Notes under the pieces: generated by a model
Databases searched by the model: none
The model's input: the letters and a program-made list of their open reading frames with translations, nothing else
What the model was told of the DNA's origin: nothing
From: a virus
Lineage: Duplodnaviria > Caudoviricetes
Direction: 5' to 3' (one strand)
Virus record (IMG/VR): IMGVR_UViG_3300013121_000029
Location: 96,001 to 160,000 of that record
DNA length: 64,000 bases
Program-made: the position numbers and the translations under genes
Shown: positions 849-61,580 of the stretch, one piece after another
How positions within the stretch are numbered: position 1 is the stretch's first letter
How the letters are laid out: every line of letters begins with the position of its first letter

Positions 849-1271
849 TCAGTATAGTAATAAATGACCAGTAATTGGATTTACTTGTTCCGGATAGGCT
901 GGCCCAATTGCACAACAAGTTTTTGTCGGAACTCCGTTAAACACTGTTCTTCCAGCATCTTCGATTAACGAACAAATTAATCCTGCGTTCAATGCTTGAT
1001 TGTATATGTCTAATAGTTCTTGTTCAGAATTTACAGATACACAAATCTTAGTGAACGATCCTTCTAACCATTTTTGTAAAGCACTGTACTTTAAATCTAT
1101 ATCATAACTAATTGGATATCTATTACCACCTAATCCATCTGACGAATAAGATATGCTTCCACAACTTAATAAAGCAGCCATTGAAGCGTGTGCTGCTTGG
1201 GAAATAATTTTCCCCACGTTCATATTTAAATCCTTTCTAACTACTATAATTTGTTTAGGTTCGTCGTTCAT
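849..1271 (-). CDS. pth2: peptidyl-tRNA hydrolase, PTH2 family
   Basis: KQIIVVRKDL, GKIISQAAHA, DAGRT and TCCAIGP motifs. Confidence 0.9.
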   Translation of the reverse strand: MNDEPKQIIVVRKDLNMNVGKIISQAAHASMAALLSCGSISYSSDGLGGNRYPISYDIDLKYSALQKWLEGSFTKICVSVNSEQELLDIYNQALNAGLICSLIEDAGRTVFNGVPTKTCCAIGPAYPEQVNPITGHLLLY

Positions 1272-6924: not shown

Positions 6925-6997
6925 TGGCATCCCGAGAGACTTGAACTCCCAACTTCTGGTTTTGAAGACCAGCGTTCTGCCATTGAACTACACCCTT
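6925..6997 (-). tRNA. tRNA-Trp-like opal suppressor (TCA) with unpaired acceptor stem, probable pseudo-tRNA
   Basis: arm CTGGT-CTTCAAA-ACCAG; 5-prime AAGGGTG does not pair with 3-prime GGGATG-CCA. Confidence 0.65.
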
Positions 6998-9850: not shown

Positions 9851-9924
9851 TGGTGGACTGTACTGGAATCGAACCAGCAATCTTCCGGCGAAGCATAAAC
9901 CACACGGAGCCATCCAGAATCCCC
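9851..9924 (-). ncRNA. tRNA-like RNA without canonical D and anticodon arms
   Basis: T arm GCTGG-TTCGATT-CCAGT and ACCA end; 5-prime GGGGATTCTGGAT. Confidence 0.5.
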
Positions 9925-10056: not shown

Positions 10057-10178
10057 TGGTGGAGATGACGAGAATCGAACTCGCCCGTCTACAGCCCTAA
10101 TTCGTGGCCAGGTTATCACGCATTACCGTTTTAGTTTACTGGCGGAACTAAGTCTCGTTTATTGATACGAGCATCAAA
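10057..10178 (-). ncRNA. tmRNA-like 3-prime segment
   Basis: ends GTAGACGG-GCGAG-TTCGATT-CTCGT-CATCTCC-ACCA; no matching 5-prime end upstream. Confidence 0.5.
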
Positions 10179-21426: not shown

Positions 21427-22448
21427 GCTTATCTAAAAATTTATATGCTTGTTTTAGTACTTTATTCTCAGGATCTGGCTGAAAGCCACCTTCATCATCT
21501 GCCCATTTTCTATCACATTGAGTGCAAATTGTCCAAATCGAACCGCCACGAATAGTTTCTTCATGAGCGCATTGATGTTTTTCGACTTCTCTGATTAATT
21601 GTTTAATTAAAGTAATTGATTCTTTATTATCTTCAGAATTAACAGACATATCCCATGATGTGTTTTTCGACACAAACTCCCACCATAAATGATGTTCGAT
21701 TAATTTAGAATATATTGCTCTTTTAAATTCATCGTCTGTATAATCTCTCACTCTTTTCCAATGATCACTTTCCAATTTATGATGAAGAGTAATAAAATCA
21801 ATAAATGCTTCTCTTATTAAGATTTTTGCAGATTCTTCTTCATTGCCTTTTGATAACAAATAATCAGGAACTTCTACAGTGGTACTAATATGTAATTTCA
21901 TTAAATTAAACCTCAAATATTTTTAATTATACATGAGGTTTAGTTTAGGATCAATTGTTATTTAAATAATCATATGCTTTATAATAGTCTTCTGATAACC
22001 AAGGTTTAATTGGTTCAGAATTTCGTTGTTTTGCCATCCATGCAATTACACCAGAATGACCATATGTATTATACATATACAATACTTGTTCAAATTGTTC
22101 AGGATAAATTTCCTCAACATCTCCACAAGCATAATAAAACACATCGTTGGCATTTAAATATACTTGTACAGAACAATCAATTAATTCTTTCATCCATATA
22201 ATATTTTCAATATTATGTAAATTCATGAATGCATCTTGTTGTGTCTCTGTTAATGTTTCAAACCAACTCATAAATGTATCCACACGATCTAAAAATTGTG
22301 TTCCGAAAGCATTCCATCCTTCTTGCCATTTAGTACGTTCTGATTTAACTCCTTCTTTGATAATATATTCTGGATATACTCCCAAACTATCAAAAGCAAT
22401 TTCATAAAATGCTTTTGATGGATCTAACATATATTTTTTATTTGTCAT
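21410..22448 (-). other. two hypothetical CDS (21410-21916, 21951-22448)
   Basis: long ORFs on the coding strand. Confidence 0.6.
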
Positions 22449-22821
22449 TTTTCTTCTCCTTTAATTTTTTTCCGAAAGATAATACCCATCTTGAGCCTTG
22501 TTCGATAGGAGTAACATAGTGATAAGAGTTGTCAGCACGAAATAGATACATTCTATTTCTCCATTGCCATATCATTTTTTGACATACAAATTGTCCTCCT
22601 TTATCAGCTTTCCATAATTCAATATTGAATCTATAGAGCCGATCACCATTGGATGGATCTTTGTGTTTTGGGATATAAGAACCTTGTTTATAATGAAACA
22701 AGTAACAATCGAATTTAAAAGTGCGGGAAAAAGCTAATGTGAAGATGCGGTAACCAGTTCCGTAGGTATCTTCGCCCCAACGGAATAAACGTAGTGTGGA
22801 TTTTTGAATCTATTTTTTCAT
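22438..22821 (-). CDS. small 2OG-Fe(II) oxygenase with an in-frame TAG at codon 4
   Basis: AAGGAG-N8-ATG AAA AAA TAG ATT CAA in frame with ORF 22438-22701; HKD..HYVT..R motifs. Confidence 0.7.
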
Positions 22822-22847
22822 GATTGTTTCTCCTTAGTTGTAAGTGT

Positions 22848-23162
22848 TTATTTTGTATTTACTATATTTCCTACTGTTAAAAACGTAACAGCAAAATCTT
22901 GTCCGAATCGTTCAGAAAATTCTACACACTGATTTCTTGCTGTGTCAAGATCATGATGCAAAAAGCCATGATACTCTCCTATTACATGTACAGTATAACA
23001 TGCAAATCTTTCTTCTGCTTTTAACATTGCAACTAATTCATACAATGGTTTATCTTTTAAATGTTGAATGTTTGGTGCAGTTAACGCAACTTTAGGATCG
23101 CCTGTATTAAACACACAAATGATATTATCATTATCATCTAATTTACAAAATCCGTGACGCAT
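22848..23162 (-). CDS. hypothetical protein
   Basis: 104-aa ORF. Confidence 0.6.
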   Translation of the reverse strand: MRHGFCKLDDNDNIICVFNTGDPKVALTAPNIQHLKDKPLYELVAMLKAEERFACYTVHVIGEYHGFLHHDLDTARNQCVEFSERFGQDFAVTFLTVGNIVNTK

Positions 23163-24430
23163 TATGCGATATCCAAATATACTTGTTCGAAACCTGAAGT
23201 GGATTTAGTTAAATCAAAATTATCAGCAATAAATTGCTTTACTTTATTTGGATTGATACTATGATGAAAAACAATATTAGGACCATGTTTATCTAACATA
23301 ACAGCATAGATACCATCAAAATATTGCAATCCATCTGCTGTGTTTTGTCCACATTCGTGACTACCGCATTCGTATTCACGTTGTGATACTACTGGAATAC
23401 TGTGTTTTGGATTTTCTTTTAATGGACAATGAAAATGGACAATGCAGTCAGTATCTTTAAATGTGTTGAAGATGATTCTTTGGCTTTGACCACCAACTGA
23501 TGGTTTTGCACCTATTGAGATTACGTTATCTTCTCCATCAGTTTTTACATACACCATTCCATTTTTATCAATGTCGTTAAAATTAGTTTTTCTAATGGAT
23601 GTTAAGAATTCATTATCGCTCAATTTAGCAGCGAAATGTCCTGTTGTGACACCATTAAACTTTTTATATGCTCCTTGCTCAATGCACCAATTAACAACAT
23701 TACGTAAAGCAGGATATACTGCAGCATCATTCCATGTAACAGGAGTACCAGCAACTACTGTTGAACGAGTAAATGACAGATGGGTTCTGTGCCATGCAAT
23801 TTCTACCAATTCACGTAGTGTCTCAACACGATTAGTAGGATCTGATTTGGCATAGTAAGCACCTTCTTCAGGGGTTATAATAATATTATTGCGTGTTTTG
23901 ATGTCATTTGCTAATACTAAATTGACAGATGCTTTTTTGAGTAAATTGAGACCTTGTTTATATTGTTCTGCAGGAGATGCATCGCATGTTGTTTTAAATG
24001 CTACTAAGAAAATATCTTTACGTTTTGCACGAATACGTTTAACAATTTTTTCAGCTGGAACAATATCAATTTGTTGTTGTCCGTTTTTCGTTTGAAGACG
24101 ATCAGCATATTTTCCTGAAACGTTGTCAATGGATCCATCAAAATCACACACTGCAGCATTAAAAAACACTACTTTAGTTTCATTGTTATTGATAATTTCT
24201 GTTATTTTGTCGTTTAGATCATCAGTAGTTACAATAGATGAATTTGGATCAGCCATTTTAGTTAGAACCAATTCAGTGTCCATATTAGTGAATCTATCTC
24301 TACATAACATTGCTATCTGTTTCGCTGTTTCGCCAAATGCTGGTGCTGCTAAGGCAAGATGAGCACGAACATAAGAAAAAGTTCCACCACCAATAACATA
24401 TACTTTCTTTTTAGTTGCCATATTAATCAC
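23162..24430 (-). CDS. CoaB-like (phosphopantothenoylcysteine synthetase) domain fused to a class II aldolase/adducin-like domain
   Basis: GGGT, NAAVCDF, LVAFKTT, LVLAND; then GHFA, KPSV, IVHFH, HG. Confidence 0.7.
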   Translation of the reverse strand: MINMATKKKVYVIGGGTFSYVRAHLALAAPAFGETAKQIAMLCRDRFTNMDTELVLTKMADPNSSIVTTDDLNDKITEIINNNETKVVFFNAAVCDFDGSIDNVSGKYADRLQTKNGQQQIDIVPAEKIVKRIRAKRKDIFLVAFKTTCDASPAEQYKQGLNLLKKASVNLVLANDIKTRNNIIITPEEGAYYAKSDPTNRVETLRELVEIAWHRTHLSFTRSTVVAGTPVTWNDAAVYPALRNVVNWCIEQGAYKKFNGVTTGHFAAKLSDNEFLTSIRKTNFNDIDKNGMVYVKTDGEDNVISIGAKPSVGGQSQRIIFNTFKDTDCIVHFHCPLKENPKHSIPVVSQREYECGSHECGQNTADGLQYFDGIYAVMLDKHGPNIVFHHSINPNKVKQFIADNFDLTKSTSGFEQVYLDIA

Positions 24431-24708
24431 CTACAATTAAATTTGAAATTTCTATCTAATACACTACCTATTCGTTCTGCAGTACAAAAGAAAGGTTTAA
24501 TAATAGTACCATCTCTCGAGATGCAATAACCGTGCATATTATTTTTCTCATATGTGTATATTTTTGTCGCAGTACTAATACAAGTATCAAAATTATGTAC
24601 TTCGACACTAAAGGAAGATGACCCGTTTCCAATATCAGTCATTACAACTAATGTATCAGCAATAGCTGTACTGCTTATTAGACATAGTGTTGAAAATAAG
24701 TATTTCAT
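24427..24708 (-). CDS. small secreted hypothetical protein
   Basis: signal-like N-terminus ending AIA, GAGG RBS. Confidence 0.55.
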   Translation of the reverse strand: MKYLFSTLCLISSTAIADTLVVMTDIGNGSSSFSVEVHNFDTCISTATKIYTYEKNNMHGYCISRDGTIIKPFFCTAERIGSVLDRNFKFNCR

Positions 24709-24722
24709 TGTTACCTCTTATT

Positions 24723-24797
24723 TGGTGCTCGTGGAGGGAATCGAACCCACAACTAACGATTTTAGGGATCGTTTTTCTACCATTGAATTACACAAGC
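24723..24797 (-). tRNA. amber suppressor tRNA (CTA)
   Basis: acceptor GCTTGTG/CACGAGC, arm ACGAT-CCCTAAA-ATCGT (C33), TTCGATT loop, ACCA. Confidence 0.8.
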
Positions 24798-24964
24798 ATG
24801 TTAGTTTATACAAATAGAATCTCTTGAAATTTCCTCACCATGATAATACAGTGTCACAACATGATACTTATTATCCCAATCCCATTCATCATTAATTGAA
24901 ATTCTCAATCCTTCTATAATTTCTTTCATAATTTCTTTTTTAAGTTCTTCCTTATCAGTATCTG

Positions 24965-25879
24965 TCATGTGAATCTCCTTTCTTTACAAAATCTTTTCCA
25001 ACATTGCGCTGTTGTTTCGTTAGGAAGAAATTCTTCAGCACAACCTAAAACTCCTCCTTTATAAGATCCTTTTCGAGGACCGACTTCATCTTTGAATTCA
25101 ATCTCGAGATATCTCTTGATTTTTCTTCCACCAGGAATATATTTGAAAAATGCTCTTAACCAAGCCCATTTTCCTCTAATCCACTCACGTTCCTCTACGT
25201 TTAAACGTGCTAAAGTAATCGAGTTATCGTATGGATCTTTATATTCGCAATACTTATAAATGGAGCAAGGATCGACGCTTGTTGATGACCAATTATCATA
25301 AGTGCCGTTTTTACGTTCATTATAATTATTTGCATAGTCATCTGATTTTGGAAGGATAAACCAATCATTATATTTGAGGAATAATTTCTCTCTTTCTTTT
25401 CCTTTTACAACCCCTGTTTTATTTTGCCATGGAAAATACAACTGTTGCCATTTAGAACGATGACGATCAGGGCACAAATATTTTCCATCGAGATATAAAG
25501 CATCGTGTCTTACTTGTTGAAAATTCCAAAAATAATTGTATACTTTACTATGATCAGAATTGTAAGGATCGTTGCTAATCCATTGCATTGGTTGAATCCC
25601 ATAGTACGTATGAATATCGTTTTTGTTAATGGAAATTCCATATTGTTTACGAATATAATTCCAATAACCACCTTCTTTATTACTCCAACTATATTGTGAA
25701 GTATCTCTCCATTCTTTTCTCGGAGATACAATTTTAGGACCTATCCACCACCAGGAGTATTTGCCTAACCGTAAATTATACATATTATATGGTAATTCTG
25801 GAGTTTCCCAATCATTGCTAATACTGATAGCAAACAAACTTCCTTCGTACGCTTTGCTTTTTTCTTTTAGTTTAAACAT
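24965..25879 (-). CDS. Trp-rich hypothetical phage protein
   Basis: 304-aa ORF. Confidence 0.7.
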   Translation of the reverse strand: MFKLKEKSKAYEGSLFAISISNDWETPELPYNMYNLRLGKYSWWWIGPKIVSPRKEWRDTSQYSWSNKEGGYWNYIRKQYGISINKNDIHTYYGIQPMQWISNDPYNSDHSKVYNYFWNFQQVRHDALYLDGKYLCPDRHRSKWQQLYFPWQNKTGVVKGKEREKLFLKYNDWFILPKSDDYANNYNERKNGTYDNWSSTSVDPCSIYKYCEYKDPYDNSITLARLNVEEREWIRGKWAWLRAFFKYIPGGRKIKRYLEIEFKDEVGPRKGSYKGGVLGCAEEFLPNETTAQCWKRFCKERRFT

Positions 25880-26104
25880 TTTCGTTAATTCTCTTTATTG
25901 AATGTTTCCAATACATCACCATTTCTTTTACAGTTTTATCCATAGCCATAGCGTATTGGTATTGTGACCGTAATTGAGATTGTAAACTTTCATACAATCT
26001 GTTTAACCGTTCATGTAAAAACTCCATTTCTGTTTGCATGATGTTTGGTCAAAATCAATCATTATATTCTCCATTTGTTAATACTTCACTATCGAAGTGA
26101 GAAT

Positions 26105-26133
26105 ATTATAAACGAAGTCTATTTGGATTTCAA
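26105..26133 (-). promoter_or_regulatory. sigma70-like early promoter
   Basis: TTGAAA-N17-TATAAT. Confidence 0.65.
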
Positions 26134-26219
26134 GCGTTTAAACTCTTCACGAATTTTTTTCAATTGCTCAAGATGAGCTTTATGCTTCTTAAGCAATTGA
26201 TTTAAATTATCATTTGGAT

Positions 26220-59548: not shown

Positions 59549-59668
59549 TGGTCGGAAATAAAGGATTTGAACCTTTAACCCTTTGCTCGGTCTATACACT
59601 TTTAATCTACTTAATTGTAGAAATGTACACACCAAAGCAAATACTCTACCCAGTTGAGCTAATTTCCG
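59549..59668 (-). tRNA. tRNA-Pro(TGG) with a 43-nt insert (59589-59631) in the anticodon loop
   Basis: acceptor CGGAAAT/ATTTCCG, TTTGC-TTTGG[insert]GA-GCAAA, CCA. Confidence 0.8.
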
Positions 59669-59894: not shown

Positions 59895-61580
59895 TCAACT
59901 TTTTAAATTAGAAATTATTTGTTTTAATAAACCATCCCTTTCAGTCGTTTTAACTTGCTTTCCTTTCAATACGTCTTTAACTAATTGAACATCTTTTTCC
60001 CAATGTTTTTTATCCAACCAAAAATCTTGAATTTTTGGATTAACTAATCTAAAAACATCGCAAATCAAATCAACTAATTCTTGACCATTAAGGTCATGAG
60101 AAAAACTAAATTCATAAGAAGTGCCTTTAAAGCAATTCTTCTTGTGTCCGTCACTAAAAATAAACAATTGAACACCATATTGTTTGTGTTCAAAAACCCA
60201 AACGCCAGGATTACTTTCATACCCTTTCATGGTAACATTTGGTTTTCCGAATTGTGAAACAACATCACCATCCACATAATCAGTCACCAAAAAAGCCTTA
60301 ATAAGATCAGCAATTCTAAAATTATATGGTTTCTGTACTTTATGAGACAAGTTAAGCAGAGTTTCTGTGTCTGCTTGTTCTATATCTTTAATTGTATATT
60401 TTTTAGTTACACGAGTAAACATATATAATCTCAATTATTCGACTATTATACTATGTTTATTCGACTAATTCAACTGAAAAAAGTACTTCTTGAATTTCAA
60501 ACCTTGGTGCAACTTTTTCATAATCACTCACAGTAGTACAAGAATCTGGATAACGTGCTCCAAATCTTGTAAACCATGCTCCTTCATAACCATAACACTC
60601 AGTTGCAATCTTTGCCATATCCTTTGCTTGTTCAATGTGTTCTTCAAATAAAAAGATAGCATCAGTTAAATCATTTGTAGTTACTAACGCACCACCGGGA
60701 GGAGTAGGTCTAGCATAATCACCACGTAACCATTCCGGAGTAATATGTAATCCATCTACTTCATAATAGCAATCACGTTTGGGATTCATGTTTCTAATAA
60801 CATATGCTTTACGACAATTTTTCTTGCTTTCTTTGACTTCAATTATACTAGGCATTGTGTATAGATGAGCAATAGTATTTGCAGCAAGAAAATCTGTATC
60901 TAATTCTCGCATATCGTGAATGTATTCAGATGCTAACAATAATTGTTCCTTATCGAATTCAGTAGGAACCTCAATTTTGTTAATTCTTACATATTGTTGA
61001 TCTTGATCAGAACTCTCTTCTTTATATCTAACCATTTTAGACAAACGTAGCAAATCCTTAATAGACATATCTTCAAAATCTTGGTCGTACAATGGTATAT
61101 CTCCGTATGATGAGCGAAGAACAATTTCTCCTCCGCCAAATGTATAAGAACAAATTATACAAAATACATATTCATTATTTTCTTGATAATGAGCTGTGCC
61201 GTCATCATCTAATTCAAGTCCTAATCGTTTACAAATTCGTTCGAATTTATTTTTCTTCATAATAAGTTAAACCATCTTTTTCTATAGTTATGATATATTA
61301 TCCATCATTTATTAAAAACCCGTTCATAAGAACGAATAGGACTACGATCTTGTTTACAACATTTTACATTAAATTTCCAATCACGATCACGAAGCAATTC
61401 TCGTTGTGTTAGAGCGTTAACAAATAAATTAAGATCACCATCTTCTTCAAGATAAATCGTTTTTCCTTTTTGATAAGAATAAATGCTGATTTGGTTTAGA
61501 ATACCAAGCTCGGCCAGATAGTCACGTTTGACAGCTACCCACCCGTGACCTGCATCGACATAATAATTGTATATCTTCAT
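59895..61580 (-). other. three hypothetical CDS (59895-60434, 60457-61260, 61305-61580)
   Basis: DAGHGWVAV..YLEEDGD motif in the last. Confidence 0.6.

Follow-up and report, generated by a model that had tools for sequence, protein, structure and literature searches.

In a 64,000-nucleotide (nt) stretch of phage DNA (Duplodnaviria; Caudoviricetes), namely positions 96,001 to 160,000 of the IMG/VR record IMGVR_UViG_3300013121_000029, hereafter referred to as the window, we identified an apparently intact gene for a small 2-oxoglutarate (2OG)/Fe(II) oxygenase, whose translation is, in our judgement, quite probably gated by a UAG at its fourth codon through a phage-encoded tRNA with the anticodon CUA, tRNA(CUA). 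Coordinates given without a locus or genome label are those of the window. An earlier note, made from the sequence of the window alone, had proposed a suppressor-gated gene at this place, unlike the wholesale recoding of TAG known as code 15. This proposal is supported by the conservation of the protein up to the TAG, by the co-occurrence of the TAG with CUA tRNAs among relatives and by the presence of a single gated gene in the contig.

An amber codon at position four of an open frame

The features of the 5′ part of the gene were read directly from the minus strand. A Shine-Dalgarno (SD) sequence AAGGAG (22830..22835) is followed, after an 8-nt spacer (22829-22822), by the start codon ATG (22821-22819) and two AAA lysine codons, which make up the leader M-K-K (22813..22821). 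Codon 4 is an in-frame TAG (22810..22812) with A as the next base (UAG-A), after which comes ATT (22809-22807), and the same frame remains open until the TAA at 22440-22438. The whole gene covers 22438..22821 on the minus strand and comprises 127 codons, the stop TAA (22438-22440) being included in the coordinates.

The earlier note had placed the AAGGAG, the ATG, the TAG and the open reading frame (ORF) correctly to the base, and the frame that it described as free of stops from the TAG into the ORF 22438-22701 is indeed open down to the TAA. Its claim that no ATG, GTG or TTG lies between the TAG and the TTG at 22701 was borne out by the reading of the ORF and by the scan of TAG codons: this TTG, 37 codons downstream, is the first of these three codons past the TAG, and the mechanical ORF list begins an 87-amino-acid (aa) product there. 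With ATG, TAG and downstream ORF all in a single frame, frameshifting at the run of A residues was considered and rejected.

The read-through product is a predicted minimal oxygenase

The read-through product of 127 residues matches the Pfam family PF13640 (2OG-FeII_Oxy_3) over residues 42-115 with 31.2 bits against a cut-off of 27 (E=4.4e-7), and PHROG 13746 (125 positions) over residues 12-124 (E=2.6e-38). The tblastn matches begin at residues 2-7 and, with the tblastn-confirmed loci included, alignments run from residues 1-7 onward, beginning at the codon after the TAG, so that conservation, the extent of which upstream of the TTG at 22701 the earlier note had left to alignment, reaches the TAG itself. 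Since homology starts directly after the TAG, the gene is whole only if this codon is read. The AlphaFold (AF2) model (pLDDT 90.8) is an all-beta, minimal double-stranded beta-helix with strands starting from residue 11; a product initiated at the TTG (residue 41) would have 87 aa and would be devoid of three strands of the predicted barrel.

Residues H53, D55, H101 and R111 are invariant in the alignment of 19 homologues and, by analogy with characterised enzymes of this type, H53-x-D55...H101 would correspond to the HxD...H iron triad and R111 to the arginine binding 2-oxoglutarate. Taken together with the homology data, 22438-22821 is best described as a complete gene for a minimal 2OG/Fe(II) oxygenase of about 125 aa with a predicted activity. 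Structure searches with VIA matched cupins at Z 9-10 and the 2OG oxygenases PolD (9.3), P4H (4iw3, 7.9) and AspH (7.8). Across Foldseek, VIA, a PDB profile search and ESM Atlas, the last queried with the window's own post-TAG frame, the matches were to generic cupins and 2OG oxygenases alone and no single subfamily stood out. The family is large: at E<=1e-3 it comprises 1070 representatives of 50% clusters, and at E<=1e-10 roughly 700. It should be added that the phage encodes a second 2OG-FeII_Oxy_3 protein of 250 aa (genome 66304-66603, minus strand), with no stop inside the match.

TAG usage across the contig

The contig of 197,594 bp has a GC content of 34% and was estimated by CheckV to be about 72% complete; its ORFs of at least 100 aa under code 11 sum to 92% of its length, overlaps included. 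TAG terminates 18 of the 335 putative genes, among them the four named in the earlier note (11368, 13593, 45403 and 52913), and the genome is therefore not recoded. In a scan of every TAG in the contig, also envisaged in that note, only the one at 22812 combined an SD-ATG just upstream with a downstream coding region that runs on for long without any start codon, which leaves one gated gene; the other candidates were ordinary gene ends followed by normal starts.

Of the 18 terminal TAGs, 12 are followed by T and 3 by A. In E. coli, an amber codon followed by A is more readily suppressed and one followed by U more readily terminates translation, and the TAG-A context at the gate, as opposed to the mostly TAG-T context at terminators, would fit suppression.

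Distribution of the early TAG among relatives

A TAG at codon 2-8 behind an ATG was found in 21 related loci representing about 19 lineages, a count that takes in some close relatives (L015-L019; L009/L010; L071-L073). In 20 of these 21 loci an SD sequence lies 6-11 nt before the ATG. The leader between the ATG and the TAG consists of 0-6 further codons and is not conserved, and after the TAG follows the conserved segment K-P-T-L-R-L-F/W-R/K-W-G. The early stop is always TAG, never TGA and never TAA, and is followed by A in 20/21 loci; the codon after it is ACC, ACT, AAC, AAA, AAG, AGC, ATA or GTA. Kept behind an SD-served ATG in 21 loci while the leader codons differ, the TAG is, as judged from these comparisons, under selection.

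Three of the phages carrying this arrangement are cultured: Xanthomonas phage XaC1 (ATG AAA TAG ACC) and the Vibrio phages nt-1 and CZ01 (both ATG TAG ACT); further cases come from IMG/VR and assembly contigs. The GenBank coding sequences of the cultured phages, XaC1_459 (L001), CZ01_185 (L002) and VPFG_00360 (L006, nt-1), are N-terminally truncated, the annotation having treated the early TAG as a stop. Several database proteins that read 'MKKQI...' are gene calls made with TAG=Q and therefore have TAG in the underlying DNA. For annotation this means that gene callers either truncate the gene or silently translate TAG as Q, and that tRNA finders miss most of the partner tRNAs described below. 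The nearest relative of the window gene, with about 85% aa identity, has the identical start ATG AAA AAA TAG ATT CAA AAA and was assembled independently from three samples.

One homologue with 70% identity (L070:3339-3710) carries CAA (Gln) at exactly the gate codon, and no tRNA was present in the 13.7 kb of flank read around it; this locus is a natural ungated version of the gene. In a maximum-likelihood tree all 20 TAG-bearing rows fall in one clade (support 97/99, stem length 0.89), inside which the CAA sequence is nested. The tree needs 2 label changes versus 8.5 expected from shuffled labels, and none of 500 shuffles was as low (0/500). On the midpoint-rooted tree the simplest history would be one gain of the TAG and one loss. 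A more distant subfamily, found in Ralstonia phages RP12/RP31 and Phabio-like Pseudomonas jumbo phages, is devoid of the N-terminal extension of about 10 residues and has a plain ATG start.

Two irregular cases were observed among the relatives. In L014:10001-10030 an ATG TAG start is combined with the loss of one base in a run of G that shifts the frame, probably a homopolymer assembly error. The oxygenase gene of L011/L012 has both an early and a terminal TAG (the latter at L011:8583-8585), and suppression would add three residues to its product.

tRNA(CUA) genes of the window and of related loci

The tRNA(CUA) of the window (24723..24797, minus strand) is a 75-nt cloverleaf with encoded CCA and discriminator A73, which was called by ARAGORN and matched Rfam RF00005 at full length with 55.4 bits. 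With this score it is 9th among the window's 16 Rfam tRNA matches (38 to 69.5 bits), a mid-range place among the tRNAs of the phage that counts in favour of gating. Its anticodon loop, CCCUAAA (C32 C33 C34 U35 A36 A37 A38), possesses the purine at position 37 and has C instead of U at position 33; U33 is near-universal in tRNAs. Further flaws are the mismatches A10.A25 and U50.U64 and the wobble pair U4.G69. The presence of a CUA tRNA on the same strand 1.9 kb upstream of the gene, as reported in the earlier note, was therefore confirmed by ARAGORN and Rfam, and its description there as well paired was generous in view of C33 and the three irregular pairs.

No second CUA tRNA is present in the 197.6-kb contig. 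The window tRNA has no close paralogue in the genome, where only its D-arm resembles the Ile and Thr tRNAs, and an exact-pattern search of IMG/VR for its anticodon arm returned two chance matches without tRNAs. A pyrrolysine reading of the ARAGORN label 'tRNA-Pyl' was rejected as the label names the CTA anticodon only, no search for pyl genes having been made.

Most relatives possess a different kind of partner: an unannotated tRNA(CUA) gene of 65-73 nt without a normal D-arm beside the oxygenase, which ARAGORN usually misses or miscalls (as 'Phe aaa' in L007). In these mini tRNAs the acceptor stem has 7 bp and a linker of 7-9 nt replaces the D-arm. The anticodon arm, interrupted by a bulge or by mismatches, is lengthened to about 9 bp, and the variable loop is nearly absent; the T-arm is normal, the discriminator is A and CCA is encoded. 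The anticodon loop is CUCUAAA (in a few cases UUCUAAC or UUCUAAA), and U33 is present in all partner tRNAs of the relatives. A covariance model built from the mini tRNA (R1) located it 0-654 nt from the gene in 15 related loci, in 13 of which it is directly adjacent (0-56 nt); it lies upstream of the gene in 11 loci and directly downstream in nt-1, L014, L026 and L074. The structure covaries strongly (0.658, versus 0.177 for shuffles and <=0.163 for slid partners). Examples from cultured phages are those of Vibrio phage nt-1 (L006:20334-20402, HQ317393.2 about 90461-90529) and Xanthomonas phage XaC1 (L005:19899-19968, OR258281.1 about 306200-306269); the family, of 65-71 nt in this set of loci, is also represented in L007-L020, L026, L071 and L074. 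The nearest relative of the window oxygenase has a mini tRNA 23 nt upstream of the gene. The complete genome of 344 kb to which L021 belongs is without a mini tRNA; its tRNA(CUA), canonical and 74 nt long, lies at a distance of 62 kb from the oxygenase gene.

Altogether, a CUA tRNA is present in 17 of the 17 TAG-bearing loci with enough flank, three further TAG-bearing contigs being too short to judge and left out of this count. Two complete genomes with TAG-less homologues, G002 and G003, have one tRNA each and no CUA tRNA, and no match to R1 was found in G004. The check asked for in the earlier note, whether relatives keep an early TAG only when they carry tRNA-CUA, thus came out in its favour. 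No protein-coding neighbour is conserved with the oxygenase across loci, and the conserved unit is therefore the gene plus the CUA tRNA.

Across the window and the remainder of the contig, itself about 72% complete, neither the R1 model nor a pattern scan found a mini tRNA. Weak R1 matches of 24.4 and 18.9 bits occur at 9851-9910 and 10057-10113 (minus strand), where no tRNA was called. A 73-nt CUA tRNA at L076:151-223, beside a TAG-bearing homologue, has a hairpin of 5 bp with a 3-nt loop in place of the D-arm, and its T-stem contains the same U.U mismatch (GTGGG/CCCTC) as that of the window tRNA.

Proposed gated translation and alternative explanations

From the anatomy of the gene, its conservation and the co-occurrence with CUA tRNAs we infer suppression itself, which may proceed as follows. 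Ribosomes would start at the SD-served AUG and, at the UAG, release factor 1 (RF1) would compete with charged tRNA(CUA). If RF1 wins, translation would terminate with release of Met-Lys-Lys; if the charged tRNA(CUA) wins, a residue would be inserted and the full-length enzyme made. The key in the phage of the window would be the cloverleaf tRNA(CUA) at 24797-24723. Output would then depend on transcription and, at the same time, on accumulation, processing and charging of the phage tRNA, i.e. on a coherent feed-forward gate setting a threshold, a delay or a dose, and the use as a timing or dosage switch that the earlier note suggested may be its purpose. The inserted residue is probably Gln, as would fit the CAA at the gate codon of L070 and the reading of TAG as Gln in code 15; moreover, the CUA anticodon itself is a strong determinant for glutaminyl-tRNA synthetase (GlnRS) in E. 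coli. The support for Gln is weak, because the leader that holds the codon is not conserved and the acceptor stem of the window tRNA (G1-C72, A73) does not resemble that of a Gln tRNA.

Several points weigh against gating by the tRNA of the window. With C33 and two stem mismatches it may be a weak suppressor. Suppression would also come at a cost, as it would extend the 18 TAG-ended phage genes (by a median of 5.5 and up to 54 codons) and host genes, and a tRNA would be kept for one gene with no obvious pay-off. The CAA relative L070 shows that the gate can be lost. Finally, with the contig at about 72% completeness, a second CUA tRNA or further gated genes may lie in the part of the genome that it does not cover.

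Alternatively, the primary job of the tRNA(CUA) may lie elsewhere, for example in extending TAG-ended proteins, in host takeover or as a decoy for tRNA-cleaving defences, and the oxygenase may be a sensor-effector acting on the tRNA or on the translation apparatus, with its early UAG reporting the strength of suppression, much as RF2 is reported by the in-frame UGA of prfB. We regard this as unlikely, albeit with an outside chance of being correct. It would agree with the oxygenase and the tRNA being the only conserved pair, with no other recurrent protein neighbour, and with the location of the gene in tRNA-rich regions of most relatives, where an RNA ligase is found beside the oxygenase in L071 and the oxygenase of L070 lies 2.4 kb downstream of a Tpt1-type RNA 2′-phosphotransferase gene. 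Some 2OG oxygenases hydroxylate translation factors, and the solved complex of Pseudomonas putida P4H with EF-Tu (4iw3) is among the oxygenase fold matches, at Z 7.9. However, the fold matches are generic cupins and double-stranded beta-helix proteins at Z of about 8-10 and indicate no specific family, and two further genes of this genome, for a PTH2-type peptidyl-tRNA hydrolase (852-1256, minus strand) and a CCA-adding-type nucleotidyltransferase (genome 172583-172933, minus strand), have no stop inside their matches and are not amber-gated. In a more specific and more speculative form, to which we give a slim chance, the oxygenase would oxidise or hydroxylate the suppressor tRNA, or RF1, EF-Tu or a ribosomal protein, so that tRNA and enzyme would form a self-tuning loop for the strength of UAG reading. 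Such a loop, if real, would be an enzymatic counterpart of prfB autoregulation in the form of a mobile two-gene cassette, often with a tRNA devoid of a D-arm.

It is improbable that the UAG is a leaky stop which throttles expression to the low percentage of near-cognate read-through, the CUA tRNA being unrelated. An early stop would cut output strongly, the enzyme might be harmful at a high dose, and TAG-A is a weak termination context. This account leaves unexplained the association of the TAG with a CUA tRNA in all 17 judgeable loci, with adjacency (0-56 nt) in 13, and the exclusive use of TAG; a weak SD sequence would throttle expression more simply, yet the SD sequences are strong.

Still less credible is a leader peptide M-K-K followed by re-initiation or non-AUG initiation after the stop, which would occur at ATT in the window. 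ATT is a possible rare start codon, and ribosomes that have just terminated can re-initiate nearby. Nevertheless, this explanation founders on the relatives, in which the TAG is followed by codons other than starts and many codons pass before a start appears; moreover, the spacing of the SD sequence suits the ATG, the ATT being 20 nt away from it, and the linked CUA tRNA would be left unexplained.

A pseudogene, a private nonsense mutation or an assembly error can practically be dismissed: gene callers and GenBank annotators do truncate the gene (to 87 aa here, and in XaC1_459, CZ01_185 and VPFG_00360), but the TAG is kept across a deep clade with a conserved protein and an invariant catalytic triad, and error or private mutation is ruled out because the nearest relative carries the identical leader in three independent assemblies.

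Comparison with other phage and engineered systems

Suppressor-gated translation of the oxygenase has to be viewed against stop-recoded phages (crAss-like, Lak and others), in which phage suppressor tRNAs read TAG as Gln (bioRxiv 10.1101/2021.08.26.457843, PMC7886860). In both situations a phage tRNA(CUA) would override the host stop so that genes with in-frame TAGs are translated, and a timing role has been proposed for both. In code-15 phages, however, dozens to hundreds of genes, mostly late ones, have in-frame TAGs and TAG has been given up as a terminator, whereas the phage of the window has one TAG at codon 4 of one gene and still ends 18 genes in TAG.

CUA tRNAs have also been recorded in standard-code jumbo phages. 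XacN1 has two, and no target was found after in-silico read-through of its 18 terminal TAGs (PMC5852040); RsoM2USA has a CUA tRNA for which no specific target was named and several potential genes were suggested (PMC8504454). These are, like the present one, large standard-code phages carrying tRNA(CUA); the difference is that in the window one particular gene, conserved and with its TAG early inside the frame, is identified as the target. The oxygenase thus offers a concrete, conserved target for the orphan suppressor tRNAs of standard-code jumbo phages.

Early stop codons with a regulatory function are known from prfB, the gene of release factor RF2, where an in-frame UGA autoregulates expression via a +1 frameshift and the product reads that stop. 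As in prfB, an early in-frame stop would tie the output of one gene to termination versus alternative decoding; unlike in prfB, the frame is unchanged, the competitor would be a dedicated tRNA, and a link of the enzyme to UAG decoding is only hypothesised.

An engineered feed-forward gate based on a suppressor tRNA works as a leak dampener (PMC7969014). As in the proposed phage gate, the combination of a suppressor tRNA with a nonsense codon in the regulated gene makes an AND gate against leak (PMC7969014); the dampener is synthetic, whereas the cassette of the window is natural and conserved. Our data therewith point to a natural single-codon translational gate, a design that synthetic biologists have built independently.

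Compared with the cassette of relatives (nt-1, CZ01, XaC1 and IMG/VR contigs), the window carries an oxygenase from the same clade, likewise with an early TAG-A behind an SD-ATG, and there is also a CUA tRNA in the genome. It differs in the partner, which in relatives is the 65-73-nt tRNA without a normal D-arm at 0-654 nt and in the window the 75-nt C33 cloverleaf located 1.9 kb away behind three unrelated ORFs. What is new in the window is the swap of the partner: the mini tRNA next to the gene has given way to a remote C33 cloverleaf. Given this swap and the L021 genome, selection seems to keep UAG decoding itself rather than a particular RNA, as the comparison of loci suggests.

Full-text literature searches retrieved no published description of an amber-gated oxygenase or of D-arm-less phage tRNAs, and the partner tRNAs of the relatives add non-canonical tRNAs of this kind to phages of bacteria. 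As three of its carriers are in culture, nt-1 and CZ01 with Vibrio natriegens and XaC1 with Xanthomonas as host, the cassette is open to direct testing.

Genomic surroundings and further observations

Three tightly packed, co-oriented ORFs of 93, 422 and 104 aa (22848..24708, minus strand; ORF list and Pfam) lie between the tRNA and the oxygenase gene. The 422-aa protein (23162-24430, minus strand) is a fusion protein in which, by Pfam, a DFP (phosphopantothenoylcysteine-synthetase-like) domain is joined to a class II aldolase domain; its relatives in two IMG/VR contigs (65-68% identity) have neither the tRNA nor the oxygenase nearby. The three intervening ORFs are, judging by such comparisons, not conserved partners of the cassette. 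The arrangement in the window looks derived, because the nearest oxygenase relative keeps a mini tRNA 23 nt upstream, and because relatives of the 422-aa gene are without the cassette and the tRNA is without a close paralogue in the genome.

No terminator-like site was found on the minus strand in 21800-26200; as the tRNA and the gene are on one strand with no such site between them, one transcript is possible, and co-transcription of tRNA(CUA) with the oxygenase mRNA is plausible. A promoter-like sequence TTGACA-18-TAGAAT (22919..22948, minus strand), identified by consensus match only, lies about 100 nt upstream of the ATG; it is a weak candidate because sites of this kind are no more numerous in the region than in shuffled controls.

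The phage is distant from cultured ones, with which its topoisomerase shares at best about 35% identity. When the region was compared with phage records by megablast no match was obtained, nor did tblastn with a 631-aa ORF give one.

A few RNA-related and other features were recorded in passing. A 117-nt Rfam tRNA match of 54.6 bits at 59552-59668 (minus strand) was not called by ARAGORN and may be a tRNA with an insert; a partial Rfam tRNA match (model positions 8-63, 47.6 bits) at 6934-6990 (minus strand) was likewise not called. Conversely, the 'tRNA-Leu caa' of ARAGORN at 59970-60058 was not confirmed by Rfam. Permuted tmRNA-like genes were reported by ARAGORN at genome 20014-20410 (plus strand) of the phage and in a related contig (L011:2404-2796; L012:79-471). 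Upstream of tRNA(CUA), and separated from it by a 55-aa ORF, a 304-aa ORF (24965-25879, minus strand) matches the Pfam family Acb3, a CBASS inhibitor, at 8.9e-29.

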